Below, one piece after another: positions 1 to 33,571 of a stretch of 64,000 nucleotides of DNA. The stretch spans positions 4,597 through 68,596 of the forward strand of contig CAMAWC010000004.1 of assembly GCA_945861875.1 (NCBI GenBank), given 5' to 3'. The DNA comes from Bordetella parapertussis (lineage in GTDB: Bacteria; Pseudomonadota; Gammaproteobacteria; Burkholderiales; SG8-39). Below the pieces are notes generated by a model. That model worked only from the letters and a program-made list of their open reading frames with translations. It was not told the origin of the DNA and did not search any database. Both the position numbers and the translations under genes were made by a program. Each line of letters starts with the position of its first letter. Position 1 is the stretch's first letter.

Positions 1-2
1 CC

Positions 3-374
3 TTGAGCGCCAGCGACGGCATGGAGGATGAATGGGCCGAGCGCTGGCGGGTTGAGGGTGGCCATGCGCAGTACCAGGAGCTTGGAGAACGGACGCCAAT
101 CGAGGCGGGCATGCGCAAGGAACTCGAACGGCTCGCCGGCAGCCTTTGTGACGAATGGATCTGGTTTGCCGCGAGCCCGGCCGAGGAGACCATAGTCGAG
201 CGCCAGCGCTACGAGCAGTACGGCCTCGCCACGCACGAAGCCAACGTGCGCTCGGTCAAATTGCGCACGGTCATGCAGGCCTTGCCCGAGGGCGGCTATG
301 TCTTCGCCTCGGTGCGGCCCGAGGTGATTGAAGCGCGCGATCTGCTGCTGCGCTGCTGGATCGTAGCGCATTGA
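3..374 (+). CDS. hypothetical protein (C-terminal part; 5' end outside window)
   Basis: Frame is open from the window edge to TGA 372-374. Third codon positions are G/C-rich like the neighbours. No family recognised by eye. Confidence 0.45.
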   Translation: MSASDGMEDEWAERWRVEGGHAQYQELGERTPIEAGMRKELERLAGSLCDEWIWFAASPAEETIVERQRYEQYGLATHEANVRSVKLRTVMQALPEGGYVFASVRPEVIEARDLLLRCWIVAH

Positions 375-375
375 G

Positions 376-506
376 GGAAGCTCTGATTAAGTCAGTAAAT
401 CGTCATTCCCGCGAAAGCGGGAATCCACCTTGACCTAAAGCATGGATTCATTGAGTCAAAATGGATTCCCGCTTTCGCGGGAATGACGGACTTAATGAGA
501 GCTTCC
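376..506. repeat. compound palindromic intergenic element with two ATTCCC-N8-GGGAAT hairpin cores
   Basis: 401-427 (cgtcattcccgcgaaagcgggaatcca) is the perfect reverse complement of 462-488 (27/27). Outer arms 376-393 and 489-506 match 17/18. Each core is itself a hairpin (ATTCCCGC-GAAA-GCGGGAAT). Confidence 0.85.
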
Positions 507-529
507 TTAGGAAAAACGGAACTGAAATC

Positions 530-1390
530 ATGACAGAAGCCTTTCGCAAAAAATCAGTGCAGTGCGCCAGTCCCTCGGGCCTGCATCGCATGGCCTACAT
601 GGAGTGGGGCAACGCCGCCAATCCGCGCGTGGTGGTATGCGTGCACGGCCTCACCCGCTGCGCGCGCGACTTTGACGCCCTTGCCGCCGAATTATCGCGT
701 GACTATCGCGTGATCTGTCCCGACGTGGCCGGGCGCGGCGACAGCGACTGGCTGAAAAACCCGATGGAATACGCCATTCCCCATTACGCCGCCGACATGG
801 TCACGCTCATCGCCCGCCTCGATGTGGCGACGGTGCACTGGGTCGGCACCTCCATGGGTGGGCTGATCGGCATGATGCTCACCGCGCTGCCCGAGACGCC
901 GGTAAGCCGCATGGTGCTCAACGATGTTGGTCCGGTGGTGACCGCTGTGTCACTCGAGCGCATCGGCACCTATGTCGGCAAGGCGCCGCGCCTGCCTTCG
1001 ATAGAAGCGGCCGAGCAGCTGGTGCGCATGGTCAGCGCGCCGTTTGGTCCGCACAGCGACGCGCAATGGCGTTTTTTGACCGAGCACGTGGTGCGGCGCG
1101 AGGCCGACGGCAGCTATCGCATGCACTACGACCCGGCCATCGCCGTGCCTTTTAACGTCAGTGCGCCGCACAAAGACATGGAATTGTGGAATTTCTGGGA
1201 CGCCATCACCTGCCCGACGCTGGTCATACGCGGCGAGCAGTCCGATCTGCTGACGCGCGACACCCTGGCGCAGATGGCGGCACGCGGTCCCAGGGCAAAA
1301 ACCGCCGAGCTGGCCGGTATAGGGCATGCGCCGACGCTGATGCACGCCGACCAGATTGCCATCGTAAAAGACTTTTTGCTCGCCGCCTGA
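530..1390 (+). CDS. alpha/beta-fold hydrolase
   Basis: ORF 461-1390. Start moved to ATG 530 because codons 1-23 (MDSRFRGNDG...) are a read-through of the palindromic repeat. Nucleophile elbow GTSMGG, HG oxyanion region (VCVHGLTR) and C-terminal GHAP are present. Confidence 0.85.
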   Translation: MTEAFRKKSVQCASPSGLHRMAYMEWGNAANPRVVVCVHGLTRCARDFDALAAELSRDYRVICPDVAGRGDSDWLKNPMEYAIPHYAADMVTLIARLDVATVHWVGTSMGGLIGMMLTALPETPVSRMVLNDVGPVVTAVSLERIGTYVGKAPRLPSIEAAEQLVRMVSAPFGPHSDAQWRFLTEHVVRREADGSYRMHYDPAIAVPFNVSAPHKDMELWNFWDAITCPTLVIRGEQSDLLTRDTLAQMAARGPRAKTAELAGIGHAPTLMHADQIAIVKDFLLAA

Positions 1391-1409
1391 ACCCGTTTCC
1401 CCGGAAGTG

Positions 1410-1450
1410 AATGGCTGGAAAGCCGCTATGGACGCGGGTTTCCAGCCATT
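1410..1450. repeat. REP-like hairpin (GGCTGGAAAGCC core), possible terminator of the hydrolase gene
   Basis: aatggctggaaagccgc-tatggac-gcgggtttccagccatt forms a 17-bp stem with one mismatch, starting 20 bp after the stop codon. The core 12-mer recurs at 20791-20802 and 25202-25213. Confidence 0.6.
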
Positions 1451-1481
1451 AGTCTGTGTTCGTGGTGCCTTCCTCTTGTGC

Positions 1482-1522
1482 TTGATCCAGGTCAACGGTC
1501 CGGCGGGGAAGCGTTGTAGCGT
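1482..1522 (+). promoter_or_regulatory. candidate FNR/CRP-family class II promoter of hemG
   Basis: Box TTGATCCAGGTCAA 1482-1495 matches TTGAT-N4-ATCAA at 9/10. The -10-like TAGCGT 1517-1522 starts 28.5 bp from the box centre. The box centre lies 108.5 bp upstream of the hemG ATG. Confidence 0.6.
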
Positions 1523-1596
1523 AGCGAGTGCGACGGTACGCGCAGCGTTGCCGCCGGCACAAACACGGCGGAGCGACACGCAAAGCGCGCTAAAGC

Positions 1597-2130
1597 ATGT
1601 CCAGAATACTCATTCTTTATTCGACCACCGACGGCCATACAGTGGAGATTTGCGAGCGGCTGCGGACGGTGATTGAGGCGCTCGGGCACACGGTAACGCT
1701 GGCCGGCTTTTCTTCCTTCCCCGGCGCCGAAATGGCGGGTTTTGAACGCATTGTGATCGGTGCGAGCATCCGTTACGGCAGGCACAGCCGGCAGTTGATT
1801 GAATTCATCAATCGCAACGCCGGCATCCTGAATGCCCGACCCGGTGCTTTTTTTTCAGTAAGCGTGGCCGCGCGCAAGCCCAAGAACAGCAAGCCCGGGA
1901 CAAATGCCTATATGCAGGCCTTTTTGCGCAAGGTGTCATGGCGGCCGGCGCAACTGGCTGTTTTTGCCGGCAAGATCGATTACCCGCGTTACGGTTTTTT
2001 TGACCGCCTGATGATCAGGCTGATCATGTTGGTCACCGGCGGGCCGACCGATCCGCAGGCGGTGGTGGACTTTACCGACTGGAATCAGGTTGAGGCTTTT
2101 GGCCGGACCATCGGTGGCGCTGAGGGCTAG
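1597..2130 (+). CDS. hemG: quinone-dependent protoporphyrinogen IX dehydrogenase HemG (flavodoxin-like)
   Basis: 177 aa. Flavodoxin N-terminus MSRILILYSTTDGHT. Near-colinear with E. coli HemG as I recall it (VIGASIRYG, YPRYGFFDRLMIRLIM, TDWNQV). Confidence 0.9.
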   Translation: MSRILILYSTTDGHTVEICERLRTVIEALGHTVTLAGFSSFPGAEMAGFERIVIGASIRYGRHSRQLIEFINRNAGILNARPGAFFSVSVAARKPKNSKPGTNAYMQAFLRKVSWRPAQLAVFAGKIDYPRYGFFDRLMIRLIMLVTGGPTDPQAVVDFTDWNQVEAFGRTIGGAEG

Positions 2131-2142
2131 CGCCGGTCAGGC

Positions 2143-2183
2143 TTGATCTGCATCAAAACCGGTATTGGCCGGCTTGCTAGGGT
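2143..2183 (+). promoter_or_regulatory. candidate FNR/CRP-family class II promoter of maeA
   Basis: Box TTGATCTGCATCAA 2143-2156 is a perfect 10/10 consensus. The -10-like TAGGGT 2178-2183 starts 28.5 bp from the box centre. The centre lies 105.5 bp upstream of ATG 2255. Confidence 0.7.
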
Positions 2184-2254
2184 AGGCGGCACCGTCTGTG
2201 CGTATGAACGAGGGGAGTATTCGCGCCGATCCGTATCTGTGTAGAGGAGGAAGC

Positions 2255-3907
2255 ATGAATAGCAAGCCCGGGAAGCGTGACGCTTCCGCTATGCCGCGCG
2301 GCACCGATTTGCTGCACGATCCGCTGCTCAACAAGGGCACGGCGTTTACCGCGGCCGAGCGTGACGCGCTGGGTTTGCGCGGCCTGTTGCCGCCGCATAT
2401 TCATACCCAGGAAGAGCAGATGGGCCGCATTCTGATGAACCTGCGGCAAATGCCCGATCCGCTCGACCGCTTTATAGCCCTTAACGCGCTGCACGATCGT
2501 AACGAGGCGCTGTTCTTTCGCACCATCTGCGAAAACGTCGATGAAATACAGCCGCTCATTTACACGCCCACCGTCGGGCTTGCGTGCCAGCGCTTCGGGC
2601 AGATTTTTCAGCGCCCGCGCGGCATGTTCATCAGCGCCGCCGACCGTGGCCGCATCAAGTCCATACTCGCCAACTGGCCCTACCAGGCCGGCATCATTGT
2701 CGTTACCGACGGTGAGCGCATTCTTGGCCTTGGCGACCAGGGCGCCAACGGCATGGGCATCCCGGTGGGCAAGCTCTCGCTTTATACGGCCTGTGCCGGC
2801 GTGAACCCGCGGTTGTGCCTGCCGGTGACCATCGATGTCGGTACCAATAATGAGACGCTGCTCAATGATCCTTATTACGTCGGCCTCAAGCAGCGGCGCA
2901 TTACCGGCGCCGCCTACGACGAGCTGATCGAGGAGTTTGTCACCGCCGCGAACGAGGTGTTTACCGGTGTGCTGATCCAGTTTGAGGACTTTGCCAACCA
3001 CAACGCTTTTCGCCTTCTGGCCAAATACCGCGACCGCATCTGCACCTTTAACGATGACATCCAGGGCACGGCGGCGGTGGTGCTCACCGGGCTTTTGTCG
3101 GCCTTGCGTATCACCGGCGGCAAATTGCAGGACCAGCGCCTGCTGTTTCTCGGCGCGGGTGAGGCGGCGACCGGCATTGCCGACTTGGTGGTCGCGGCCA
3201 TGGTCGCGCAAGGTGTCGCCGAGGGCGTGGCGCGGCAGTGCTGCTGGCTGGTCGATTCCAAGGGGCTGGTGGTCAAAAGCCGCGGCGATCTTGCCGCGCA
3301 AAAGAAACCCTACGCACATGAACATGCGCCTGTCGCCGAATTCCCGGCAGCGGTGCGCGCACTCAAACCGACGGCGATCATCGGTGTGGCCGCGGTGGGC
3401 GGCACCTTTACCAAGGAGGTGCTCGCCGACATGGCGCGGATCAATGCGCAACCCATCGTGTTCGCGCTGTCCAACCCGACGTCCAAGTCCGAATGCACGG
3501 CACAGCAGGCCTACGAGGGCACCGGCGGCAAGGCCTTGTTTGCCTGCGGCAGCCCCTTCGACCCGGTAACGCTGGCCGGGCGCACCTATGTGCCGCGCCA
3601 GGGCAACAACTCCTATATTTTCCCCGGCGTCGGCCTTGGCGCGATAGTCAGCCGCACGCGGCGCGTCACCGACGAGATGTTCCTTGCCGCAGCGCACACG
3701 CTGGCAGCGCAGGTGAGCGAAGCGGACCTGGCACAGGGCAGCCTGTACCCGGCGCTGGCGCGAATCCGCGAGGTGTCGGCGGCGATTGCCGCGTCGGTTG
3801 CGACGATTGCCTACGAGCGCGATCTGGCCGGCAAACCGCGTCCGGTGGACATCCAGGCCGACATCAAGTCGCACATGTACGACCCGCGCTATGAGAGTTA
3901 TGCCTAG
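2255..3907 (+). CDS. maeA: NAD-dependent malic enzyme
   Basis: ORF 2198-3907. ATG 2255 follows GGAGGA. Malic-enzyme N-terminus LHDPLLNKGTAFTAAERDALGLRGLLPP. Dinucleotide fold FLGAGEAATGIA. About 550 aa. Confidence 0.93.
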   Translation: MNSKPGKRDASAMPRGTDLLHDPLLNKGTAFTAAERDALGLRGLLPPHIHTQEEQMGRILMNLRQMPDPLDRFIALNALHDRNEALFFRTICENVDEIQPLIYTPTVGLACQRFGQIFQRPRGMFISAADRGRIKSILANWPYQAGIIVVTDGERILGLGDQGANGMGIPVGKLSLYTACAGVNPRLCLPVTIDVGTNNETLLNDPYYVGLKQRRITGAAYDELIEEFVTAANEVFTGVLIQFEDFANHNAFRLLAKYRDRICTFNDDIQGTAAVVLTGLLSALRITGGKLQDQRLLFLGAGEAATGIADLVVAAMVAQGVAEGVARQCCWLVDSKGLVVKSRGDLAAQKKPYAHEHAPVAEFPAAVRALKPTAIIGVAAVGGTFTKEVLADMARINAQPIVFALSNPTSKSECTAQQAYEGTGGKALFACGSPFDPVTLAGRTYVPRQGNNSYIFPGVGLGAIVSRTRRVTDEMFLAAAHTLAAQVSEADLAQGSLYPALARIREVSAAIAASVATIAYERDLAGKPRPVDIQADIKSHMYDPRYESYA

Positions 3908-3968
3908 AGTAGGATGTTGCCTGGAAGGGAAGAATATTTTTCAACGGAACTTCAACCAAGGAGCGCAT

Positions 3969-4256
3969 ATGAAAACCATAGCGATTGCGGCCGTCCTGGC
4001 CATTGGCGTTTTTGGAGCGGGGGCGGCGGGCGCATCCGAGGCGCTGGCCAAGAGCAGCGGCTGCCTCGGCTGCCACGCACTGGATACCACCAAGAAGGTC
4101 GGGCCGGGATTCAAGACGATAGCCACCGCAAACAAGGGCAAGGCCGATGCCGAAGCAACGATCAGCGCCAAGATCATCAGCGCCAAGGGGCACCCCAAGG
4201 TCAAGGCCGGTGATGACGACGTAAAGACCATGACAAAGTGGATTCTTACGCTGTAG
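3969..4256 (+). CDS. monohaem class I cytochrome c (c551/c552-like), periplasmic
   Basis: ATG 3969 follows AAGGAG. Signal peptide MKTIAIAAVLAIGVFGAGAAGA. Single CLGCH motif followed by KKVGPGFK. 95 aa. Confidence 0.85.
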   Translation: MKTIAIAAVLAIGVFGAGAAGASEALAKSSGCLGCHALDTTKKVGPGFKTIATANKGKADAEATISAKIISAKGHPKVKAGDDDVKTMTKWILTL

Positions 4257-4264
4257 CGATGTTT

Positions 4265-4305
4265 CCCCGCGGCCTGCACCCGGCGCAGGCCGCGGGGGTC
4301 TTTCG
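4265..4305 (+). terminator. rho-independent terminator after the cytochrome c gene
   Basis: 13-bp perfect stem ccccgcggcctgc / gcaggccgcgggg with a 7-nt loop, followed by gtctttcg. Confidence 0.6.
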
Positions 4306-4332
4306 ACAGTAATTTCATCGCGTGAGCAATTG

Positions 4333-4373
4333 TTGATCTGGCGCAAACAGGCCGCTGCGCGCTGGACTACCCT
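4333..4373 (+). promoter_or_regulatory. candidate FNR/Dnr-type class II promoter of the multihaem c::b gene
   Basis: Box TTGATCTGGCGCAA 4333-4346 (8/10) is the identical 14-mer to 19029-19042. The -10-like TACCCT 4368-4373 starts 28.5 bp from the box centre. Confidence 0.5.
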
Positions 4374-4508
4374 GCAGTCAGTTGTTCTGCGACCGGTATT
4401 GGTGTGGTGAAACTCGTGCTTGCCAGCTGGCAAGGTGATGCCAGCATCCTATAAAAAAGGGCGGCGTTTGCAGTGCTCCGTTTTCAATGTTGCAGGGGAA
4501 AAGACAAC

Positions 4509-6299
4509 ATGATGCGAATTCCGGGATCGGCTTTATTGAGGGTGACAGCTTGCCTGCTTGCCATAAGCAGTCTCGGTGCGCTGTCTGCGGGGGCCGCCGA
4601 TGCGCCGGCTGGCGCCGTCGCCCCAGTCGCAAGCACAGCGGCAACCGACAAACCGGATAACGACACCTGTCTCGCGTGTCACGGCAATGCGGGCTTCTCC
4701 GCGCCGGGAGCCGGCGGGAAGGAGCGCCCGCTGCATGTGGCGCAGGATAAATTCGGCGCCAGCTCGCACGGGAAGTTGGAGTGTGTTTCCTGCCATACCG
4801 CCATCACCGATGTTCCGCACAAGAATATCCCGGCCGAGGGCAGCCCGGCCCGCGCCGCACAGCGCAAGGGCATTCCCGAGCTTTGCGGCACCTGCCACGC
4901 CAAGCAGCGTGACGAATATGCGACTTCGGTGCACGGGCGCGAGGCCCTGGAAAAAGGCAACCCCGCAGCGGCGGTCTGCTCCGACTGCCACAAGCCCCAT
5001 GCGGTGCAGGACCCGACGGGCGATGTCGCGCGGCTGACCATCACCAAGAGCTGCGGCAGTTGCCACAAGGACATGCTCAGGACTTATACCGAAACCTATC
5101 ACGGCCAGATCAACGCCCTCGGTTACGCCAATACGGCCAAGTGCTTTGACTGCCATGGCAGTCACGGCATCCAGCGCGTCGGCGATCCTGCGTCGTCGGT
5201 GCACCGCAAGAACCGCCTCGAAACCTGCCAGAAGTGCCACATCAACGCCAGCGAGGGCTTTGCCACCTTTGCACCGCACGGCGACGCGCGCGACTTTGCC
5301 CGTTACCCGATGATCTGGTTGGCGCAAAAAATGATGGTCGGCCTGCTGGTCGGCACCTTTGCCTTCTTCTGGCTGCATACGGCCATGTGGTTTTACCGCG
5401 AATACAAGGAGCGCAGCGAGCGCAAATCGCGGCCGCAGGTGCTGGCTAGCGCCTTGCCAACCGGGACGACAGGCAAGCATTTCCAGCGCTTTAGCGCGAC
5501 CTGGCGCGTGGCCCATCTGAGCTTCGCGCTAAGCCTGATGGTGCTGACCCTCACCGGCATGCCGGTGTTTTATCCGGAAAGCAGCTGGGCACCGGCGGTG
5601 ATGAAGCTGCTGGGTGGCCCGCAGACGGCGGCGATTATCCACCGCGTGGCTGCCGTGGTCTTTGCCGGGGTGTTTTTCTGGCACCTGGGCTATGTGGCGC
5701 TGCGCCTGGCGCGCAACTGGAAAAACTTTCGTATTTTCGGCTCCGATTCGTTGATACCCGGCCTGCAGGACCTCAAGGACATTATTGCGATGTTCACTTG
5801 GTTCATCGGCAAGGGCACGCGGCCGATATTCGACCGCTGGACCTACTGGGAGAAGTTCGACTACTGGGCGCCGTTCTGGGGTGTGACCATCATCGGCGTG
5901 AGCGGCCTGATGATGTGGCTGCCCAACCTGACGGCTTCCTTCCTGCCTGGCTGGGTGTTCAACATCGCCGCGATCTTCCATGGCGAGGAGGCCTTCCTCG
6001 CGGTGGTGTTCCTGTTCACCGTGCACTTTTTCAACAACCACTTCCGGCCGGACAAGTTTCCGCTTGATATCGTCATGTTCACCGGCACCATGACGCTGGA
6101 GGCCTTCCGCCACGAGCACGGCGTGCAGTACCAGCGACTGCTCGATTCGGGGGAACTGGAGAAGCACCTCGTCGATGCGCCGTCCCAACCGATGACTCTG
6201 GGGGCGAAGATCCTGGGCACCGTGCTGATCATCGTCGGCCTGACCTTGCTGGTGTTCGTGCTGGCCGGGTTCCTGCAGGGTTTTTCGGGAGGACACTGA
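4509..6299 (+). CDS. heptahaem cytochrome c fused to a polytopic dihaem-b-like membrane domain (CbcL-like quinol/quinone oxidoreductase candidate)
   Basis: ORF 4473-6299, with ATG 4509 the likely start (MMRIPGS..., signal peptide). Seven CXXCH motifs: CLACH, CVSCH, CGTCH, CSDCH, CGSCH, CFDCH, CQKCH. About 6 hydrophobic helices follow, two carrying His pairs 14-15 residues apart. Confidence 0.85.
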   Translation: MMRIPGSALLRVTACLLAISSLGALSAGAADAPAGAVAPVASTAATDKPDNDTCLACHGNAGFSAPGAGGKERPLHVAQDKFGASSHGKLECVSCHTAITDVPHKNIPAEGSPARAAQRKGIPELCGTCHAKQRDEYATSVHGREALEKGNPAAAVCSDCHKPHAVQDPTGDVARLTITKSCGSCHKDMLRTYTETYHGQINALGYANTAKCFDCHGSHGIQRVGDPASSVHRKNRLETCQKCHINASEGFATFAPHGDARDFARYPMIWLAQKMMVGLLVGTFAFFWLHTAMWFYREYKERSERKSRPQVLASALPTGTTGKHFQRFSATWRVAHLSFALSLMVLTLTGMPVFYPESSWAPAVMKLLGGPQTAAIIHRVAAVVFAGVFFWHLGYVALRLARNWKNFRIFGSDSLIPGLQDLKDIIAMFTWFIGKGTRPIFDRWTYWEKFDYWAPFWGVTIIGVSGLMMWLPNLTASFLPGWVFNIAAIFHGEEAFLAVVFLFTVHFFNNHFRPDKFPLDIVMFTGTMTLEAFRHEHGVQYQRLLDSGELEKHLVDAPSQPMTLGAKILGTVLIIVGLTLLVFVLAGFLQGFSGGH

Positions 6300-6303
6300 C
6301 GGC

Positions 6304-6344
6304 TTGATCCATGTCAAGACGCGCGGCGCGTGGCGGTGTATTTG
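6304..6344 (+). promoter_or_regulatory. candidate FNR/CRP-family class II promoter of the c5-OFOR-frd operon
   Basis: Box TTGATCCATGTCAA 6304-6317 (9/10) is identical to the rquA box. The weaker -10-like TATTTG 6339-6344 starts 28.5 bp from the box centre. The box begins 5 bp after the upstream stop codon. Confidence 0.55.
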
Positions 6345-6384: not shown

Positions 6385-7044
6385 ATGAGTGACAAGATGC
6401 CCGGCGTATGGCGGCAGGTGGCGGTGGTGGCGATGCTTGCCTTTGCCTTGCCCCTTGGGGCACAACAGGCGGCGGCACAGCAAGCGGCGGCCCCCAAGGC
6501 CGGCGATCGCAGCGGCAAGCAGGTGGTCGATGCCACCTGCGCCTCCTGTCACGCCAGCGGCGCCAACGGCGCGCCGAAGATCGGTGACGTCAAGGCCTGG
6601 AGCGCACGCTCCAAGCAAGGCCTGTCCAGCCTGACCAAGGAAGCCATCGGCGGTATTCGCAAAATGCCCGGGCACGGCGGCGACGCGACCCTGACCGACC
6701 TGGAAATCGGCCGTGCCGTGACCTACATGGTCAACCAGTCCGGCGGCAAGTGGACCGAACCTGCGAGTCCCAAGGACATGGCAAAAGAGCGCAGCGGCAG
6801 GCAGATTGTTGAAATGCAGTGCTACCGCTGCCATGAAAACGGCACGGGCGGGGCGCCGAAAATCGGCGACCGGCAAGCCTGGATACCGCGGGTCAGCCAG
6901 GGCTTGGATAACGTCACGCGCTCGGCCATACGCGGGCACGGCGGCATGCCGGCGCGCGGCGGCATGGCCGATGTCAGCGACACCGAGTTGCGCAACGCGA
7001 TTGCCTACATGCTCAATTACGGCACCGGCGCGGAAAAGAAATGA
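6385..7044 (+). CDS. dihaem cytochrome c, two c5-type domains
   Basis: ATG 6385 lies 6 nt after AGGAGGA. Signal peptide present. Two CXXCH motifs (CASCH, CYRCH), each followed by G..GAPKIGD..AW, which is typical of cytochrome c5. Confidence 0.85.
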   Translation: MSDKMPGVWRQVAVVAMLAFALPLGAQQAAAQQAAAPKAGDRSGKQVVDATCASCHASGANGAPKIGDVKAWSARSKQGLSSLTKEAIGGIRKMPGHGGDATLTDLEIGRAVTYMVNQSGGKWTEPASPKDMAKERSGRQIVEMQCYRCHENGTGGAPKIGDRQAWIPRVSQGLDNVTRSAIRGHGGMPARGGMADVSDTELRNAIAYMLNYGTGAEKK

Positions 7045-7081: not shown

Positions 7082-7666
7082 ATGTTCCAGGTGCGCATTC
7101 ACGGCAGGGGCGGTCAGGGCGTGGTCTCGGCCGCGGAAATGCTCTCGGTGGCCGCATTCGACGAAGGGCGTTTCGCCCAGGCTTTCCCCAGCTTCGGTTC
7201 TGAGCGCATGGGTGCGCCGGTGATGGCCTTTTGCCGCATCGACAGGCGCGAGATCCGCTCGCGCGAACCGGTGATGCAGCCCGATGCGCTGATCATCCAG
7301 GACCCGACCCTGCTGCACCAGGTGGACTTGTTCAGCGGGCTCGCCGCCGGCGGCTTCATCCTCATTAATTCCAGGCGCAGTGCCGAGGAACTGGGCATAG
7401 CCGAACTGGCGCACGGCATCGGACACGACCACCTGTGTACGGTGCCGGCGAGTGATTTAGCCCTCAAGCACACCGGCAGGTCGATGCCCAATGCCGCGCT
7501 GCTGGGCGGGTTTGCCGCCATCACCGGGCAGTTGCACCTCGATTCGGTGACCAAGGCGATACGCGAAAAGTTTCCCGGCAAGGTGGGCGAGTCCAACGTG
7601 GCCGCCGCCGAGGCCGCCTACGAGCACGTCATGAAGGAGCGGCAATCGCCGGCTACCCATGCTTAA
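7082..7666 (+). CDS. 2-oxoacid:ferredoxin oxidoreductase, gamma subunit
   Basis: MFQVRIHGRGGQGVVSAAEMLSVAAF...FPSFGSERMGAP is the characteristic POR/KOR gamma N-terminus. 194 aa. Confidence 0.9.
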   Translation: MFQVRIHGRGGQGVVSAAEMLSVAAFDEGRFAQAFPSFGSERMGAPVMAFCRIDRREIRSREPVMQPDALIIQDPTLLHQVDLFSGLAAGGFILINSRRSAEELGIAELAHGIGHDHLCTVPASDLALKHTGRSMPNAALLGGFAAITGQLHLDSVTKAIREKFPGKVGESNVAAAEAAYEHVMKERQSPATHA

Positions 7667-8912
7667 GCAAACCGAAGGCTCACACGCCATCGCCGAAGCG
7701 GTGGCCTTATGCCGCCCGGAGGTGATTTGCGCGTACCCGATCACACCCCAGACGCACATCGTCGAGGGCCTGGGCGAGATGGTCAAGGACGGTTCCCTCA
7801 CCGGCTGCGAGTTCATCAACGTCGAGTCCGAATTCGCCGCCTTGTCGGTGGCCATAGGCTCGTCGGCCGCCGGGGCGCGCAGCTACACCGCCACGGCCAG
7901 CCAGGGCATCCTGTTCATGGCCGAGGCGGTATATAACGCCGCCGGCCTCGGCCTGCCCATCGTCATGACCATAGGCAATCGCGCCATTGGCGCACCCATC
8001 AACATCTGGAACGACCACTCGGACAGCATGTCGATGCGCGACGCCGGTTGGATACAGCTTTATGCCGAGAACAACCAGGAGGCGGCCGACCTGCACATCC
8101 AGGCGTTTCGCCTCGCTGAGGAATTGTCCTGCCCGGTGATGGTCTGCGTCGACGGTTTCATTCTGACCCACGCCTATGAGCGCGTGGACATTCCGACGCA
8201 GGCCCAGGTGGACGAATACCTGCCGCCGTTCGAACCGGTGCAGCAGCTTGACTGCGACGATCCGGTGTCCATCGGCGCCATGGTCGGGCCGGAGGCGTTT
8301 TTTGAGGTGCGTTACCTGCAGCACTACAAGCAGCAGCGCGCCCTTGAGCTCATTCCGCACTTTGCCGAGGAATTCAAGAACCTGTTCGGGCGCGAGGCCG
8401 GCGGCCTGGTGCGCGCCTACCAGTGCGACGACGCTGAAACCATCGTCGTGGCACTGGGTTCGGTCAACGGCACCATCAAGGATGTGGTCGATGAGATGCG
8501 CGCAGCGGGGCACCGCATCGGCGTGCTGACGCTGTGCTCCTTCCGGCCGTTTCCTCTGACTGCTGTGCGCACGGCGCTGATCAAGGCAAAGCGCGTGGTC
8601 GTACTGGAGAAGTCCCTCGCCGTCGGCATCGGCGGCGTGGTCTCCGATGGCGTGCGCAAGGCCTTGTCCGGCGTGGTATTGCGCGGCTACACGGTGATTG
8701 CCGGACTGGGCGGTCGCGCCATTACCGGTAAATCGCTGCGCGCCTTGTTTGAGAAGGCCGAGCGCGACGAACTCGAGATGCTCAGTTTCCTTGATCTGAA
8801 TTGGGACGTGGTCGAGCGCGAGCTCGAGCGCGGGCGGCAACAACGGCGCTCCGGACCGACCGCCGAGAACATCCTGCGCGACCTCGGTCCGGCCGGCGCG
8901 CGCATAGGCTAG
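7659..8912 (+). CDS. 2-oxoacid:ferredoxin oxidoreductase, alpha subunit
   Basis: 417 aa. EGSHAIAEAVALCRPEVICAYPITPQT is the alpha-subunit signature. The start overlaps the gamma stop codon. Confidence 0.9.
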   Translation: MLKQTEGSHAIAEAVALCRPEVICAYPITPQTHIVEGLGEMVKDGSLTGCEFINVESEFAALSVAIGSSAAGARSYTATASQGILFMAEAVYNAAGLGLPIVMTIGNRAIGAPINIWNDHSDSMSMRDAGWIQLYAENNQEAADLHIQAFRLAEELSCPVMVCVDGFILTHAYERVDIPTQAQVDEYLPPFEPVQQLDCDDPVSIGAMVGPEAFFEVRYLQHYKQQRALELIPHFAEEFKNLFGREAGGLVRAYQCDDAETIVVALGSVNGTIKDVVDEMRAAGHRIGVLTLCSFRPFPLTAVRTALIKAKRVVVLEKSLAVGIGGVVSDGVRKALSGVVLRGYTVIAGLGGRAITGKSLRALFEKAERDELEMLSFLDLNWDVVERELERGRQQRRSGPTAENILRDLGPAGARIG

Positions 8913-8923
8913 CGGGGGACATC

Positions 8924-9925
8924 ATGACGCTGCAATCGGTGAAGTTCTACCAGACCGGCACCTTTACCGTGGGCAACCGCCTGCTCGAAGCGGCCGATCG
9001 CACGGTGCAGGCGAACATGCGCCGCACCAATTCGCTCAACTCCGGCCACCGCGCCTGCCAGGGTTGCGGCGAGGCGCTCGGTGCGCGCTACGCCATCGAC
9101 GCGGCGATGCAGGCGACCAACAACCGCATCATGGCGGTCAATGCCACCGGCTGCCTGGAAGTGTTCTCCACGCCTTACCCGGAGACTTCCTGGCAGATTC
9201 CGTGGATACATTCGCTGTTCGGCAATGCCGCGGCGGTGGCATCGGGCGTGGCGGCGGGGCTGCGGGTAAAGGGGCGCAAGGATGTGCGCGTGGTGGCGCA
9301 GGGCGGCGATGGCGGCACCACCGACATCGGTTTTGGCTGCCTGTCGGGCATGTTCGAGCGCAACGACGACGTGCTCTACATCTGCTATGACAACGAGGCC
9401 TACATGAACACCGGCGTGCAGCGCTCCAGCGCCACGCCGCCGGCGGCGCGCACCGCCACCACCATGGCGGTGGGCGCGCATCCGGGCAATGTCTTTGGCA
9501 CCGGCAAGAACCTGCCGCTGATCGCCATGGCGCACAACATCCCCTACGTCGCGACGGCCTCGGTGGCCAACCTGCACGACCTGGAGGCCAAGGTGACGCG
9601 CGCCATGGGCATGCACGGTGCGCGCTACGTCCATATCCATGTGCCATGCCCGCTGGGCTGGGGATCGCAACCCGCCGACACCATGCTGGTCGCACGTATG
9701 GCGGTTGAGTCGGGACTGTTTCCACTGATCGAGGCCGAGCACGGCGAAGTGACCGGGCGTTACCGGTTGCGCAAGCAGGTTCCGGTCGAGGACTACCTCA
9801 AGTTGCAAAAGCGTTTTTCCCACTTGTTCGGCACCAAAGGCGAACCGGCCACCGTGGCCGCCATCCAGGCCATGGCTGATGCCAATATCCGCAGGTTTGG
9901 TCTTGCCCAGCCGGTTAGCGCATGA
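8924..9925 (+). CDS. 2-oxoacid:ferredoxin oxidoreductase, beta (TPP-binding) subunit
   Basis: ATG 8924. CQGCG cluster ligands. TPP motif GGDGGTTDIGFGCLSGMFERNDDVLYICYDNEAYMNTG. Confidence 0.9.
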   Translation: MTLQSVKFYQTGTFTVGNRLLEAADRTVQANMRRTNSLNSGHRACQGCGEALGARYAIDAAMQATNNRIMAVNATGCLEVFSTPYPETSWQIPWIHSLFGNAAAVASGVAAGLRVKGRKDVRVVAQGGDGGTTDIGFGCLSGMFERNDDVLYICYDNEAYMNTGVQRSSATPPAARTATTMAVGAHPGNVFGTGKNLPLIAMAHNIPYVATASVANLHDLEAKVTRAMGMHGARYVHIHVPCPLGWGSQPADTMLVARMAVESGLFPLIEAEHGEVTGRYRLRKQVPVEDYLKLQKRFSHLFGTKGEPATVAAIQAMADANIRRFGLAQPVSA

Positions 9926-11559
9926 ACAAGCCGCTGAACAAACCTTTTGCCATCACGCTGGACCCGGGCTCCAGCCTTGCCAATCACACCGGTACCTGGC
10001 GCACCGAGCGCCCGGTGTATCTTGACCGCCTGCCGCCGTGCAATCACGCCTGCCCGGCCGGGGAAGACATCCAGGGCTGGCTCTACCACGCCGAAAGCGG
10101 CGACTACGAACGCGCCTGGCGCGAGCTGGTGAAGAACAATCCGATGCCGGCGTTGATGGGACGGGTGTGCTACCACCCCTGCGAAGACAGCTGCAACCGC
10201 GGCAAGCTCGACAGCGCGGTAAGCATCCATGCCGTGGAGAGGTTCCTTGGCGATCAGGCGTTAAAGCAAAAATGGCAATTTGCGCCTGAGGCAGCCGCGA
10301 GCGGCAAGCGCGTGCTGGTGGTGGGGGCGGGGCCCTCCGGCCTCTCGGCGGCCTACCACCTGACCCGGCTTGGCCATAGCGTGACCATTTACGAAGCGGG
10401 CCCGATGGCGGGTGGCATGATGCGTTTCGGCATTCCGAAATACCGTCTGCCGCGTGACGTGCTGGACGGCGAGATTGCGCGCATCCTCGACATGGGCATT
10501 GAGCTGAAGCTCAACACCCGCGTCGACGACATCCTCGAATCCATGGCCAAGGGCGGTTTTGATGCGGCCTTTCTGGCGGTGGGTGCGCATATCGGGCGCA
10601 GGACCGACATTCCGGCGCGCGACGCGGGCAAGATCCTCGATGCGGTGATGGTGTTGCGCGGCATGGAAACAGGCGAGATGCCGCAACTGGGCCGGCGTGT
10701 CGTGGTCTACGGCGGCGGCAACACGGCGCTGGATGTGGCGCGCACCGCCAAGCGCCTTGGCGCAGCCGAGGCGATGATCGTCTACCGGCGCACGCAGGCG
10801 CAGATGCCGGCGCACGAGGCCGAGTTGCAGGAGGCCCTCGACGAAGGTGTGATGGTGAAATGGCTCAACACCATCAAGAGCATCGACCAGACGCACTTTA
10901 CCGTGGAAAAAATGGCCCTCGACGACAAGGGCTTTCCGCAACCGACCGGCGAAATGGAAACCATAGAGGCCGACACCCTGGTGCTGGCGCTGGGCCAGGA
11001 CGTCGATTTGTCGCTGCTCGACAAGGTGCCGGGCCTGGCCATCGAAAAAGGCGTGGTGCGGGTGGACAAGAACATGATGAGCGGCTACCCCGGCATTTTC
11101 GCCGGCGGCGATATGGTGCCCTCGGATCGCACCGTCACGGTGGCCATAGGTCATGGCAAAAAGGCCGCGCGCAATATCGACGCCTGGCTGCACGGCAAGA
11201 CCGCGGCAGCCGTTGAAAAGCACGAGCTGGCGCGCTTTGACCTGCTCAACACCTGGTATTACGCCGATGCGCCCAAGACGGTGCAGCCGGTGCTTGACAT
11301 GCTGCGCCGCCAATCGAGTTTTGACGAGGTGCTGGGCGGCCTCGATGAGGGCAACGCCTTGTTCGAGGCGCGGCGTTGCCTGTCCTGCGGCAACTGTTTC
11401 GAGTGCGACAACTGCTACGGCGTGTGCCCGGACAATGCGGTGACCAAGCTGGGCCCGGGCAAGCGCTTCGAGTTCAATTACGACTACTGCAAGGGCTGCG
11501 GGCTTTGCGTGTCGGAATGCCCCTGCGGCGCGATAAAGATGACCCCCGAAACGATGTGA
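9922..11559 (+). CDS. GltD-like NAD(P)H flavoprotein fused to a 2x[4Fe-4S] ferredoxin (OFOR delta-like) module
   Basis: N-terminal Fe-S region (CPAGEDIQGW...CYHPCEDSCNR). Two Rossmann motifs (VVGAGPSGLSAAY; VYGGGNTALDVART). C-terminal CLSCGNCFECDNCYGVCP...CKGCGLCVSECPCG. The start overlaps the beta-subunit stop. Confidence 0.85.
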   Translation: MNKPLNKPFAITLDPGSSLANHTGTWRTERPVYLDRLPPCNHACPAGEDIQGWLYHAESGDYERAWRELVKNNPMPALMGRVCYHPCEDSCNRGKLDSAVSIHAVERFLGDQALKQKWQFAPEAAASGKRVLVVGAGPSGLSAAYHLTRLGHSVTIYEAGPMAGGMMRFGIPKYRLPRDVLDGEIARILDMGIELKLNTRVDDILESMAKGGFDAAFLAVGAHIGRRTDIPARDAGKILDAVMVLRGMETGEMPQLGRRVVVYGGGNTALDVARTAKRLGAAEAMIVYRRTQAQMPAHEAELQEALDEGVMVKWLNTIKSIDQTHFTVEKMALDDKGFPQPTGEMETIEADTLVLALGQDVDLSLLDKVPGLAIEKGVVRVDKNMMSGYPGIFAGGDMVPSDRTVTVAIGHGKKAARNIDAWLHGKTAAAVEKHELARFDLLNTWYYADAPKTVQPVLDMLRRQSSFDEVLGGLDEGNALFEARRCLSCGNCFECDNCYGVCPDNAVTKLGPGKRFEFNYDYCKGCGLCVSECPCGAIKMTPETM

Positions 11560-11612: not shown

Positions 11613-13403
11613 GTGGATGTGTTTAAAGCGGATGTGGCGATTGTGGGCGCGGGCGGCGCCGGCTTGCGCGCGGCCATAGCCGTGGCCGAGGCCGACCCGA
11701 AACTGGTCGTTGCGCTCATTTCCAAGGTCTACCCGATGCGCAGCCACACCGTGGCGGCCGAGGGCGGCGCGGCGGCGGTGACGCGGCCCGACGACAGCCT
11801 GGAACACCACTTCAACGACACCGTCGGTGGCGGCGACTGGTTGTGCGAGCAGGACGTGGTCGAGTACTTTGTCGCCCACGCCCACGAGGAAATGGTGCAG
11901 ATGGAACACTGGGGTTGCCCGTGGAGCCGCAAGGAGGACGGCCACGCCAACGTGCGCGCCTTTGGCGGCATGAAAATCGAGCGCACCTGGTTTGCCGCCG
12001 ACAAGACCGGCTTTCACATGTTGCACACCTTGTTTCAGACCTCGATCAAGTATCCGTCGATCAAGCGCTTTGACGAGCATTTTTGTGTCGACCTGCTGGT
12101 CGAGGACGATCGCGTCCAGGGTGTGGTGACCATCGAAAACGCCAGCGGCGAGTTCACGTTGATCCAGGCGAAATCAGTGATTATCGCGACCGGCGGCGCC
12201 GGCCGCGTGTTTCGCGAGAACACTAACGGCGGCATTGTCACCGGTGATGGCATGGCGCTCGCCTACCGCCACGGCGTGCCGCTGCGTGACATGGAATTCG
12301 TGCAATACCACCCGACCTGCATGCCCGGCACCGGGTTGCTGTTTACCGAGGCTTGCCGTGGCGAAGGCGGGTTTTTGCTCAACAAGGATGGCTATCGCTA
12401 CCTGCAGGACTACGGCCTCGGACCGGCGACGCCGGAGCCGCGCAACAAGGCGATGGAACTGGGGCCACGCGACCGCTTGAGCCAGGCCTTCTGGCACGAA
12501 AAACAAAAGGGCAGGACAGTCGACGGCCGTCACGGCGCGGTGGTGCACCTTGATTTGCGTCATATCGGCGAACAAAAGCTGCGCGAGCGCCTGCCGCAGA
12601 TTTACGAACTGGCCGAGCAATTTCTTGGCGTCGATCCGGCGCACGAACCGATTCCGGTGTTGCCGGCGGTGCACTACACCATGGGCGGCATTATCGCCGA
12701 CGGCAAGTGCGCCTCAACGCTGCCGGGGCTGTACTCGGTCGGCGAATGTTCCAGCGTCGGCATACACGGCGCCAATCGCCTCGGCTCGAACTCACTCACC
12801 GAGCTGATCGTTTTTGGCAAGGTCGCCGGTATCGAGGCGGCGCAGTACGCGCGCTCGGTCAATCACGGCGATGCTGCGACACTGGGAAAACAAGCCGATG
12901 CGGTGGCCGCAAAGGCCCTTGGGATAGCCACCGGCAATGGTGGCACGGAACGCATGGCGGTGTTGCGCACCGAAATGGCCAAAACCATGGAGGAGGGCTG
13001 CGGTATCTATCGCCTTGGCACCGAGATGCAAGCCACCTGCGACAAGATCGACGAATTGAAGCAGCGCTACCGCAACCTCAAATTGGACGATAAGTCGCGG
13101 GTCTGGAATACCGAGTGGCTGCTGGCCATTGAGCTTGGGTACCTGCTCGATGTGGCGCAGGCGATGGCTTACTCGGCCTTCAACCGCAAGGAATCGCGCG
13201 GCTCGCACCAGCGCCTGGACGGCTATGAGCAGCGCGACGATGCGAACTACCTCAAACACACGTTGGCCTATTTCAGCGGCGACGGCGCACCGCGAATCGC
13301 CTACGGTGATGTAAAAATAACCAAATCCAAACCGGGAACCCGCGCCTATGGCGCCGCCGGCGAGAAGGCCGATGCAGACCGAAAGGCAGCCGCCCATGAC
13401 TGA
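11613..13403 (+). CDS. frdA: fumarate reductase flavoprotein subunit
   Basis: GTG start. Near-colinear with E. coli FrdA as recalled (ADVAIVGAGGAGLRAAIA, SKVYPMRSHTVAAEGG, GDWLCEQDVV, HYTMGGI, GANRLGSNSL). Confidence 0.95.
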   Translation: MDVFKADVAIVGAGGAGLRAAIAVAEADPKLVVALISKVYPMRSHTVAAEGGAAAVTRPDDSLEHHFNDTVGGGDWLCEQDVVEYFVAHAHEEMVQMEHWGCPWSRKEDGHANVRAFGGMKIERTWFAADKTGFHMLHTLFQTSIKYPSIKRFDEHFCVDLLVEDDRVQGVVTIENASGEFTLIQAKSVIIATGGAGRVFRENTNGGIVTGDGMALAYRHGVPLRDMEFVQYHPTCMPGTGLLFTEACRGEGGFLLNKDGYRYLQDYGLGPATPEPRNKAMELGPRDRLSQAFWHEKQKGRTVDGRHGAVVHLDLRHIGEQKLRERLPQIYELAEQFLGVDPAHEPIPVLPAVHYTMGGIIADGKCASTLPGLYSVGECSSVGIHGANRLGSNSLTELIVFGKVAGIEAAQYARSVNHGDAATLGKQADAVAAKALGIATGNGGTERMAVLRTEMAKTMEEGCGIYRLGTEMQATCDKIDELKQRYRNLKLDDKSRVWNTEWLLAIELGYLLDVAQAMAYSAFNRKESRGSHQRLDGYEQRDDANYLKHTLAYFSGDGAPRIAYGDVKITKSKPGTRAYGAAGEKADADRKAAAHD

Positions 13404-14166
13404 GCCTGTCAAAACCATTCGCATCGAGGTGTTGCGCTACCGCCCGGAGCAGGACAGCGAGCCGGTGGTGCAGGCCTACGACGTGCCTTTTACCGACGAC
13501 ATGTCGGTGCTGCAGGGGGTGCAATACATCAAGGATTACCTTGACGGGACGCTGAGCTTTCGCTGGTCCTGCCGCATGGCGATCTGCGGCAGCTGCGGCA
13601 TGATGATTGGCGGCGTGCCCAAGCTCTCCTGCCAGACCTTTTTGCGCGACTACTACCCGGCGGGACTGCGCATTGATCCGCTGGCGCATTTTCCGATCGA
13701 GCGCGACCTGGTGGTCAACATCGAGGATTTCATCAGCAAGCTTGAAAGCATCAAGCCCTACATCGTGCCCAAGGAAGCGCGTACGCTGGAGCAGGGGGAA
13801 TACCTGCAAACGCCGGGGCAGCTGGAGCAGTTCCTGCAGTTCAGCGGCTGCATCAATTGCACGTTGTGCTACTCGGCCTGCCCGCAGTACGGGCTGGATT
13901 CAAAGTTTACCGGCCCGGGGGTGCTTGCCTTGCTGCACCGCTATAACGCCGATTCGCGCGACGGGGCGAGCGCAGAACGCATGCAGCTGGTTCACACGGA
14001 GGAAGGGGTGTGGGGCTGCACCGCGGTAGGCTATTGCTCGGAAGTCTGCCCCAAGGGTGTGGATCCCGCCAATGCGGTCAACCAGAACAAGACAGCGAGT
14101 GCGATGGACTATTTCCTCAGGTTCGTAAGGCCCCAAGGGGCTGAAAACAAGGGAGGTGCCAAATGA
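13396..14166 (+). CDS. frdB: fumarate reductase iron-sulfur subunit
   Basis: ATG 13396 overlaps the frdA stop. RWSCRMAICGSCGMM, FSGCINCTLCYSACP and GYCSEVCPKGVDP match E. coli FrdB. Confidence 0.95.
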   Translation: MTEPVKTIRIEVLRYRPEQDSEPVVQAYDVPFTDDMSVLQGVQYIKDYLDGTLSFRWSCRMAICGSCGMMIGGVPKLSCQTFLRDYYPAGLRIDPLAHFPIERDLVVNIEDFISKLESIKPYIVPKEARTLEQGEYLQTPGQLEQFLQFSGCINCTLCYSACPQYGLDSKFTGPGVLALLHRYNADSRDGASAERMQLVHTEEGVWGCTAVGYCSEVCPKGVDPANAVNQNKTASAMDYFLRFVRPQGAENKGGAK

Positions 14167-14561
14167 GTGCGCGCCGTCCGTATGTGCGCTCCATGGACGG
14201 GTGGTGGCGCCGCGACCCGTTCTTTGTCCGGTACATGGCGCGGGAAGCGACCGCGGTATTCGTCGTGGCCTATGCGGTGGTGCTGCTGGTCGGGGTTTTG
14301 CGCTTGTCGCAGGGTGAGGCCGCGTTCAACGGCTGGCTGGCGGCGCTGCGCAGTCCCGCTTCAGTGGCGTTCCACGTGTTCCTGCTGGCGATTTTTGTTT
14401 ATCACACCTGGAGCTGGTTTCGCATCATGCCCAAGACCATGCCGCTGATCCTGCCCGATGGCCGGCGCCTGCAGCCGGGGCTGATTACCGGCGCCGGGCT
14501 CGCGGTGGCCGCGGTGTTGTGCCTGGGTGGATTGCTCGTCCTGATGGGGGTGAAGCCATGA
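14163..14561 (+). CDS. frdC: fumarate reductase membrane anchor subunit C
   Basis: 132 aa with 3 TM helices. N-terminus RRPYVRSMDGWWRRDPFFVRYMAREATAV parallels E. coli FrdC ([31 protein letters not shown]). Confidence 0.9.
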   Translation: MSARRPYVRSMDGWWRRDPFFVRYMAREATAVFVVAYAVVLLVGVLRLSQGEAAFNGWLAALRSPASVAFHVFLLAIFVYHTWSWFRIMPKTMPLILPDGRRLQPGLITGAGLAVAAVLCLGGLLVLMGVKP

Positions 14562-14937: not shown

Positions 14938-14978
14938 TTGACGCAGATCAACAGGCGAGCCGGAACCTTCCCTATTCT
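14938..14978 (+). promoter_or_regulatory. candidate FNR/CRP-family class II promoter of tctBAC
   Basis: Box TTGACGCAGATCAA 14938-14951 (9/10). The -10-like TATTCT 14973-14978 starts 28.5 bp from the box centre. A short leader carrying GGAGGAGG precedes ATG 14997. Confidence 0.55.
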
Positions 14979-33564: not shown

Positions 33565-33571
33565 TGTCGGT

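Follow-up and report, generated by a model that had tools for sequence, protein, structure and literature searches.

Proteins in which a periplasmic multihaem cytochrome c is fused to a dihaem cytochrome b membrane domain were defined as the CbcL/MtrH/MtoC family by Zhong and Shi (2018), with members in 15 phyla, 3–23 haems, mostly six transmembrane helices and conserved membrane histidines (PMC6295460). They include proteins from Dechloromonas, Gallionella and Rhodoferax, namely MtoC (D. aromatica RCB, G. capsiferriformans ES-2) and MtrH (R. ferrireducens), which are ∼55–59% identical to each other and ∼35% identical to CbcL (PMC6295460); mtoC and mtoD are typical passengers of betaproteobacterial mtr clusters (Baker et al. 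2022). The c domain of Geobacter CbcL was found by spectroscopy to be bis-His throughout, with an apparent potential (Eapp) of −194 mV (PMC9129911), and electron transfer across the membrane from a quinone site on the cytoplasmic side has been concluded for this protein (bioRxiv 2022.08.31.506072). Here, we analyse a gene at positions 4509–6299 of a 64,000-nucleotide stretch (the 64-kb window) of contig CAMAWC010000004.1, assembly GCA_945861875.1 (Bordetella parapertussis). We are confident that its 596-residue product is a member of this family, with a cofactor layout of two b and seven c haems. What is new is the recurrent rquA/frdABCD context of CbcL-like genes in a clade of Burkholderiales. 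The best reading overall, which we consider probable, is that this member of the CbcL/MtoC/MtrH family is a quinol:cytochrome c oxidoreductase of the inner membrane, tied to the rhodoquinone pool and passing electrons outwards.

A signal peptide and a periplasmic multihaem c domain, with all CXXCH motifs in residues 54–244, are followed in this protein by a six-helix C-terminal domain of the FdnI/HydC-like b type with conserved histidines, and its seven haems lie within the known range of the family. A reading made earlier from the DNA alone (the sequence-only reading) had recognized a CbcL-like fusion of a multihaem c and an FdnI-type b domain, which agrees with the published description. Since the family has already been published with betaproteobacterial members, neither the architecture nor its betaproteobacterial setting is novel, and the protein as such adds little to a catalogue that already spans 15 phyla. 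As in MtoC and MtrH, an N-terminal multihaem c domain is combined with six transmembrane helices and conserved membrane histidines, and an MtoD-like monohaem cytochrome c is encoded upstream. Our protein is 52–63% identical to homologues from Rhodoferax, Gallionella, Sulfuritalea and Ramlibacter, to be compared with 55–59% among the named members. The identity is 52–56% with full-length homologues encoded by genomes of Rhodoferax and Gallionella, and one of these homologues belongs to an mtrABC cluster; GSU0274, MtoC and MtrH themselves were compared by description. In a Rhodoferax sp. (L008), a 56%-identical homologue occupies the MtrH position, after genes for a monohaem c, a decahaem MtrA, an MtrB/PioB porin and MtrC. 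The differences are that our protein has seven haems instead of the usual nine, that mtoAB or mtrAB are absent within the 64 kb, and that the gene lies inside an island rich in FNR boxes together with hemG, por, frdABCD and rquA. With Geobacter sulfurreducens CbcL (GSU0274) it shares the periplasmic multihaem c domain, predicted to be bis-His as in CbcL, the six-helix HydC/FdnI-type dihaem b domain and, on our reading, the role of an inner-membrane oxidoreductase acting on a low-potential quinone pool. CbcL, however, has nine haems and works with menaquinol, PpcA and extracellular acceptors, whereas the protein studied here would use rhodoquinone or ubiquinone and class I cytochromes as partners.

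The genomic neighbourhood of family members was counted in 80 genome loci and studied in further loci such as L086/87 and L090. A bona fide rquA gene (300–318 bits) lies 0.1–6.5 kb from the CbcL-like gene in seven of the 80 genome loci (L011, L012, L017, L018, L019, L021 and L025), and likewise in L086/87 and L090. It follows the CbcL-like gene directly in L011 (Rhodoferax lacus IMCC26218), L018 and L019, whereas in L012, L017 and L021 frdABCD comes directly after the CbcL-like gene and is followed by rquA. The latter order is also found in L143, and in L025 rquA is located beyond an mtr-like pair; in L119 and L124, too, rquA lies within a few kb of the CbcL-like gene. L086/87 and L090, which carry the closest seven-haem relatives of our gene (66–67% identity), show an mtoA–mtoB–monohaem c group divergent from the series response regulator–cbcL-like–rquA–(c5)–frdABCD. 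When the search was started from rquA instead, in 23 metagenome loci with 8 kb of flank or more, a CbcL-like gene was present in five, three of these being clear cases (56–75% identity), and frdA was present in 11 of the 23, usually 15–50 nt after rquA. Few Pseudomonadota carry rquA: one survey counted 84 genomes, most of them betaproteobacterial (PMC11707229). Against this background the linkage goes far beyond chance, within a single lineage. A neighbour-joining tree places the gene of the window and every rquA-linked gene in one clade, mixed with conduit-linked genes, and no clade of Rhodocyclales, Gallionella, Alpha- or Gammaproteobacteria shows the rquA link. No publication that links rhodoquinone or rquA to CbcL, MtoC or MtrH came up in our literature search.

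Rhodoquinone has so far been known mainly as a cofactor of fumarate respiration. If the linkage is functional, it would widen the role of this quinone beyond fumarate reduction and would explain low-potential extracellular or periplasmic electron transfer in ubiquinone-based bacteria such as Rhodoferax. A more general proposal, possible but doubtful at present, is that CbcL/MtoC-type cytochromes of this Comamonadaceae-like clade of Burkholderiales are dedicated rhodoquinol:cytochrome c oxidoreductases. If this were true, rhodoquinone would be the low-potential quinone that loads multihaem chains in menaquinone-free Betaproteobacteria, including the Mtr/Mto conduits for Fe(III) reduction in relatives of Rhodoferax, and cbcL-like–(frdABCD)–rquA clusters would encode two alternative outlets, or an inlet and an outlet, of one anaerobic rhodoquinone pool. 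The rquA/frdABCD association is the one lead worth following, and it is approachable in cultivable relatives.

The reading frame of the gene contains no internal stop. The identical 596-residue protein was found on six metagenome contigs, called from the same ATG, and more than 3,500 homologues were scored in a word-indexed search, which indicates that the open reading frame is real. Its Sec-like N-terminus has a hydrophobic core and a predicted cleavage site between SAGA and AD, with low confidence of the AlphaFold2 model (predicted local distance difference test, pLDDT) over residues 1–45, in keeping with the signal peptide that had been placed ahead of the haem domain. A regular-expression count of the translation gives exactly seven CXXCH motifs, the same seven that the sequence-only reading had listed: CLACH (C54), CVSCH (C92), CGTCH (C126), CSDCH (C157), CGSCH (C182), CFDCH (C212) and CQKCH (C240). 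The alignment of homologues reveals seven further invariant histidines (H87, H104, H142, H164, H198, H219 and H257); together with those of the motifs they suffice for bis-His ligation of every c haem, and we regard all seven as probably bis-His. The comparison of the N-terminus with multihaem families, proposed as a check on the earlier reading, yielded the Pfam families Paired_CXXCH_1 (4e-13) and Cytochrome_C7 (1e-9). Nine CXXCH motifs are present in 102 of the 120 best homologues; haems 3 and 4 of these nine-haem relatives are missing in our protein owing to a deletion between residues 106 and 126. Its closest relatives include further seven-haem proteins (P0015, P0025 and P0101).

The membrane domain was expected to contain about six hydrophobic helices, and six long ones (residues 267–303, 330–354, 371–402, 447–470, 482–510 and 560–593; TM1 to TM6) were found by hydropathy and in an AlphaFold2 model built from 106 homologues (pLDDT 81.8, predicted TM-score 0.78). 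The loops after TM1, TM3 and TM5 are rich in Lys and Arg, charges that fit an N-out topology and place the c domain in the periplasm. Helices 2–5 (residues 322–551, nt 5472–6161) form the FdnI/HyaC-like dihaem b core, to which TM1 and TM6 are additions. A Foldseek search of the Protein Data Bank (PDB) with the model returned Escherichia coli FdnI as the best fold match (1kqf_C, probability 1.0, target TM-score 0.73) and the cytochrome b of hydrogenase-1 as the second, and the family alignment matched E. coli FdnI (from NC_000913) with an E-value of 2e-5 in hhalign. The core of the membrane domain is a homologue of the dihaem cytochromes b of FdnI and hydrogenase-1. The FdnI/HydC-type dihaem-b-like domain of the sequence-only reading was thereby recovered, and the lack of any b-cytochrome homology, named there as grounds for abandoning it, was not observed. 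Sequence searches of the PDB, made with the protein and with a 106-sequence profile, gave no CbcL-type structure, only weak multihaem matches and FdnI at E 0.13; the link to FdnI rests on the fold search and hhalign.

In the hhalign alignment H336, H378, H491 and H506 coincide with H18, H57, H155 and H169 of FdnI, which we take to be the b-haem ligands of 1KQF, a numbering that agrees with the FdnI sequence retrieved. The four histidines are invariant in 121 close sequences and 96–100% conserved in 97 representatives at 32–55% identity. Their distribution over the helices of the core (H336 on I, H378 on II, H491 and H506 on IV) is the 1+1+2 pattern of FdnI; by this homology H378/H491 would hold the b haem on the periplasmic side and H336/H506 that on the cytoplasmic side. 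The sequence-only reading had instead proposed two pairs, H378/H392 and H491/H506, each within one helix. Both strings are present, but the pattern is not 2+2: H392 is His in 87 of the 121 close homologues and Gln in the other 34 (28%), and a hydrogen-bonding role appears to suit it better than axial ligation. The worry that the paired histidines might not be conserved in homologues applies to H392, while the four positions aligned with FdnI are conserved. A 2+2 arrangement, or a third b haem on H290 and H392, was considered and not adopted in view of the same Gln substitutions.

The most conserved motif of the family, WTYWEKFDYW, aligns in hhalign with the loop N110–W118 of FdnI, which presumably lines the cytoplasmic site for menaquinone or 2-heptyl-4-hydroxyquinoline N-oxide in 1KQG. 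From the alignment, quinone probably binds near this loop, on the cytoplasmic side of the membrane; the signature RWTYWEKFDYWA, which covers the motif, also served as the probe for a scan of species genomes. Compared with FdnI and HyaC, our protein shares the four-helix dihaem b core with its four aligned ligands and the conserved cytoplasmic loop where FdnI has its quinone site. It differs in having only ∼16–20% identity and scores below the NCBIfam and Pfam cut-offs, two extra transmembrane helices and, as electron partner, a fused c-haem domain instead of FdnGH or HyaAB; its gene neighbourhood contains neither a formate dehydrogenase nor a hydrogenase. A cleaner cofactor model for the family emerges, with four FdnI-type ligands, a quinone loop on the cytoplasmic side, c haems that are all bis-His, a variable H392 (His/Gln) and a conserved H290.

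Several observations weigh against a standard dihaem cytochrome b. A search for Ni_hydr_CYTB (PF01292), suggested with the sequence-only reading, gave no match for the protein itself, only DUF4405 at 0.0076–0.014 (the membrane domain alone was likewise below threshold), and NCBIfam FdnI (TIGR01583) reached 1e-7 and 32 bits against a cut-off of 115.85; the search succeeded for a homologue of 66% identity (P0025), which passes PF01292 with 36.4 bits against a gathering score of 30.1. Judged from these profile scores, the protein is a distant relative of the FdnI/Ni_hydr_CYTB superfamily and not an orthologue of FdnI. Moreover, two further conserved histidines, H290 on the extra TM1 (92–99%) and H511 (79–100%), have no place in the ligand model. 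With H392 they lie near the cytoplasmic face, where a part in quinone binding, contacts with haem propionates or a further cofactor is possible. These facts, and an AlphaFold2 model that contains the protein without haem, could be taken to mean that the domain is a six-helix anchor for the heptahaem cytochrome, devoid of b haem, or that it binds another number of haems. We find this hardly credible: no histidines of the domain are better conserved than those at the four FdnI ligand positions, FdnI is its best fold match, close homologues do pass PF01292, and a mere anchor would not need some 100 invariant residues.

Concerning the quinone, the tie to rhodoquinone is in our estimate evenly balanced. 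The rquA gene of the window lies 11.9 kb from the CbcL-like gene, on the opposite strand, and most members of the family, many of the same clade included, lack an rquA neighbour and are associated with decahaem/porin conduits. As all rquA-linked loci belong to one clade, the synteny may have been inherited from a single ancestral anaerobic island. These points speak against a rhodoquinone-specific enzyme and suit a generic ubiquinol:cytochrome c oxidoreductase, a bypass of bc1 feeding c551/c5 cytochromes for denitrification or a cbb3 oxidase, in which case rquA and frd would be close merely through shared FNR control in one inherited anaerobic island. The neighbouring cytochromes do resemble c551 and c5, donors to nitrite reductase and cbb3 oxidase. 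We nevertheless consider such a ubiquinol enzyme quite unlikely, as gene order varies among the linked loci and yet proximity is kept, with rquA directly downstream, after frdABCD or beyond the c5 gene, and as ubiquinol could hardly reduce c haems that are all bis-His, for which a value of about −194 mV was measured in Geobacter CbcL. The potential of rhodoquinone is −63 mV, close to that of menaquinone, and that of ubiquinol about +100 mV. Rhodoquinol could plausibly reduce bis-His multihaem chains beyond the reach of ubiquinol.

The mechanism that we favour is the following. As the genomic context suggests, FNR-type control would switch the gene on under anaerobic conditions, along with rquA, hemG and the genes for fumarate reductase. 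The protein would oxidize rhodoquinol, a low-potential pool that would take the place in Betaproteobacteria that menaquinol has for Geobacter CbcL. By homology, electrons would cross the membrane from the cytoplasmic-face quinone site through the two b haems to the seven c haems, and would then reach the two neighbouring cytochromes, the MtoD-like monohaem c (bis-His) and the dihaem c5 (His/Met), and finally the terminal acceptor of the cell. With an FdnI-type topology, the protons of the quinol would be released in the cytoplasm and outward flow would be pulled by the membrane potential; the protein would then work as an overflow or exit valve of the quinone pool in anaerobic cells, without energy conservation. 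Salmonella PhsC, likened here by description, is of the same b-type family and shows such flow from quinol to the periplasm driven by the membrane potential; it differs in being a separate subunit that works with the molybdoenzyme PhsAB. The sequence-only reading had suggested that electrons enter or leave the quinone pool through this fusion of a multihaem c and an FdnI-type dihaem b domain, and in its core that reading is supported.

The outward direction, from quinol to periplasmic cytochromes, is in our view slightly favoured. His/Met c5 domains typically have high potentials; they could accept electrons from low-potential haems and could hardly reduce rhodoquinone. Quinol oxidation is preferred because CbcL, the characterized member, is a quinol oxidase and because the adjacent His/Met c5 haems are probably high-potential acceptors. 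Against it, FdnI and HyaC run inwards, from a periplasmic donor to quinone. Experimental work is confined to Geobacter CbcL, outside the betaproteobacterial branch, and MtoC was first proposed as a quinone reductase in Fe(II) oxidizers (PMC6295460). The same enzyme could accordingly be run inwards as a periplasmic-cytochrome:quinone reductase, as proposed for MtoC, reducing rhodoquinone that fumarate reductase re-oxidizes; the FdnI topology would then be a half loop generating proton motive force, and cbcL-like, rquA and frdABCD would make a complete donor–quinone–acceptor chain. The order cbcL-like–frdABCD–rquA in L012, L017, L021 and L143 reads as one pathway in this sense, the structural relatives FdnI and HyaC work this way, the closest seven-haem relatives (L086, L090) carry a divergent mtoA–mtoB conduit, and family members occur in Fe(II) oxidizers such as Gallionella. 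All the same, we think inward flow, though a serious rival, unlikely here: the 64-kb window has no decahaem or porin gene, the adjacent His/Met c5 is probably too high-potential to reduce rhodoquinone at −63 mV, Geobacter CbcL, the sole member studied experimentally, is a quinol oxidase, and a flow from Fe(II) to fumarate gives little energy.

Anaerobic control was examined through FNR/Dnr boxes, defined as TTGAT-N4-ATCAA with at most one mismatch unless stated. The window contains nine of them, against 1.2 expected. Those in the first 19 kb precede hemG, the malic enzyme gene, the c5–por–frd operon, tctB and rquA at promoter-like (class-II-like) distances, and this part of the window looks, from its sequence, like an anaerobic regulon island. 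FNR boxes were also found upstream of homologues in 16 of 86 loci, about three times the ∼5 expected. The CbcL-like gene had been credited with an FNR/Dnr box of its own; a site matching 8 of 10 consensus positions does lie upstream, but it is degenerate, and the better box, just after the stop codon, serves the downstream operon. With its two mismatches, the upstream site is of a quality barely enriched in the window (23 against 15 expected), which counts against FNR control of the gene. There are two exact copies of the 14-mer TTGATCTGGCGCAA, each between genes: one at 4333–4346 and one at 19029–19042, by the rquA promoter region. They may represent a variant FixK/Dnr-type site or a short promoter module present in duplicate. 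The copy at 19029 is followed by a second copy of TCTGGCGCAA, and the half-repeat extends to 19052.

Table 1. Positions of the gene, its domains and neighbouring features in the 64-kb window
Feature	Position (nt)	Strand	Basis or remark
CbcL/MtoC/MtrH-family gene, 596 aa	4509–6299 (stop codon 6297–6299)	+	Translation
Sec-type signal peptide, aa 1–29, predicted cleavage after SAGA	4509–4595	+	Sequence reading
Periplasmic heptahaem c domain, aa 30–262	4596–5294	+	Seven CXXCH and seven invariant distal His; Pfam
Six-helix membrane domain, aa 267–593	5307–6287	+	AlphaFold2, Foldseek, hhalign
Four predicted haem-b ligand codons	H336 5514–5516, H378 5640–5642, H491 5979–5981, H506 6024–6026 (span 5514–6026)	+	
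Codons of other membrane His	H290 5376–5378, H392 5682–5684, H511 6039–6041		
Family signature RWTYWEKFDYWA, aa 442–453, cytoplasmic side, candidate quinone site	5832–5867	+	Invariant columns, hhalign
FNR boxes	1482–1495, 2143–2156, 6304–6317, 14938–14951, 18961–18974; also 25759, 26234, 40574, 51130		
Degenerate FNR/FixK-type box TTGATCTGGCGCAA (= TTGATctggCGCAA)	4333–4346	+	8/10 consensus, 163 nt before ATG
FNR/Dnr box TTGATCCATGTCAA, ahead of dihaem c5–por–frd operon	6304–6317	+	9/10, after the stop of the CbcL-like gene
HemG equivalog, quinone-dependent protoporphyrinogen IX dehydrogenase	1597–2130	+	193 bits vs 142 cut-off; own FNR box
MtoD-like class I monohaem cytochrome c, 95 aa, predicted bis-His	3969–4256	+	PDB matches, alignment
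Perfect 13-bp GC-rich hairpin after monohaem c gene, terminator-like, weak T tract	4265–4297	+	Folding
Periplasmic dihaem cytochrome, two c5-type domains, His/Met	6385–7044	+	Pfam Cytochrome_CBB3 ×2; PDB c-555, c-551, c5
Por-type 2-oxoacid:ferredoxin oxidoreductase (PorC, PorA, PorB), then flavoprotein	7082–11559	+	All Por below equivalog cut-offs
frdABCD, E. coli-type quinol:fumarate reductase	11613–14914	+	NCBIfam FrdA 1046 bits vs 854; Pfam Fumarate_red_C, Fumarate_red_D
rquA, rhodoquinone biosynthesis	18161–18871	−	NCBIfam NF038261, 300.8 bits vs 175 cut-off

The genes around the CbcL-like gene (Table 1) include possible partners on both sides. The small cytochrome encoded upstream matches c551 (7e-12) and MtoD (4xxl, 1e-8) in the PDB, and has a histidine at the position of the c551 Met ligand (MPPN motif). 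It aligns with the ∼115-residue monohaem cytochromes c encoded directly upstream of homologues in ∼22 loci, where the distal His column is common, and is probably a shortened, bis-His version of an MtoD-like shuttle. The ∼13-residue ‘KVKLDDGTEE’ insertion of the MtoD-like proteins upstream of homologues is absent from it. The hairpin that separates the MtoD-like from the MtoC-like gene has a folding energy of −34.5 kcal/mol (z = −4.25); it was not called in a terminator scan, and a promoter scan detected no sigma-70 promoter around the CbcL-like gene. Directly downstream, the sequence-only reading had placed a dihaem c5 followed by a 2-oxoacid:ferredoxin oxidoreductase–frd operon, an arrangement that the annotation of this region confirmed. 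Homologues of the dihaem c5 are encoded near the CbcL-like gene in seven loci, and this cytochrome is a candidate redox partner.

The flavoprotein that follows PorCAB (545 residues) combines a GltD-like NAD(P) part with a C-terminal PorD-like 2×[4Fe-4S] domain (NF009410, 782 bits), and the layout of the Por and GltD-like parts recalls the NAD-linked phenylglyoxylate dehydrogenase. Co-transcription of the Por module with a periplasmic dihaem c5 and frdABCD is an odd mixture of compartments, and only L013 shares this module. Between the frdABCD side and rquA, downstream of the CbcL-like gene, lies tctBAC; the malic enzyme gene and hemG are upstream. Genes similar to hemG were seen near the CbcL-like gene in 8 of the 80 genome loci, for instance at 11887–12447 in L008 and 11781–12293 in L051. 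Conserved synteny with the 2-oxoacid:ferredoxin oxidoreductase or the malic enzyme was considered as well and rejected, as these genes are shared only by L013 and L084. The latter (Betaproteobacteria bacterium RIFCSPLOWO2_02_FULL_62_17, 1–6246) is the only genome locus with the upstream synteny of the window: its malic enzyme is 84% and its small monohaem c 73% identical, and a gene for a 433-residue tetrahaem protein precedes its nine-haem CbcL-like gene.

The family at large is widespread. An exhaustive search returned 5,559 representative clusters at E<1e-3 and 828 at E<1e-30, with 5–22 haems, and the species-representative genomes contain at least 598 confirmed loci, mostly, among those listed, from Beta-, Gamma- and Alphaproteobacteria, with matches in Rhodoferax, Ramlibacter, Sulfuritalea and Gallionella. 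A decahaem MtrA/MtoA-like gene lies within 10 kb in ∼25 of the 80 genome loci. This association with mtoAB/mtrAB conduits for extracellular electron transfer is frequent, not universal, and neither a decahaem cytochrome nor an MtrB/PioB-type porin gene was found in the 64-kb window. Geobacter CbcL, sought among the representatives as a nine-haem protein of ∼600 residues with V205 and F525, had no match. Two other kinds of multihaem membrane protein were compared and set aside: NapC/NirT/CymA, with a single N-terminal transmembrane helix and a tetrahaem domain, gave only a partial PF03264 match (residues 123–167), domain order and helix number being different, and ImcH has three N-terminal helices ahead of a seven-haem domain (PMC6295460), the reverse of the order found here, with haems first and six helices after. 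Many CbcL-like genes have beside them, up- or downstream, a gene for a tetrahaem protein of ∼380–440 residues (L013, L015, L022, L030–L032, L035–L037, L040, L050, L051, L056, L061, L067 and others), which is absent from the window.

Farther along the window, a PqqU-like TonB-dependent receptor (604 bits, below the equivalog cut-off) is encoded in the region 31465–35526 on the minus strand, next to an open reading frame for a cytochrome c with two CXXCH motifs (33572–34273) and a protein similar to glucose/sorbosone dehydrogenases; the region may represent a periplasmic dehydrogenase module dependent on pyrroloquinoline quinone. Solute receptors of the Bug/TctC family are encoded at 17052–18029, 24102–25190, 28141–29175 and 37165–38226, in addition to tctBA; like the best neighbours, these genes fit a betaproteobacterial genome of the Burkholderiales type.

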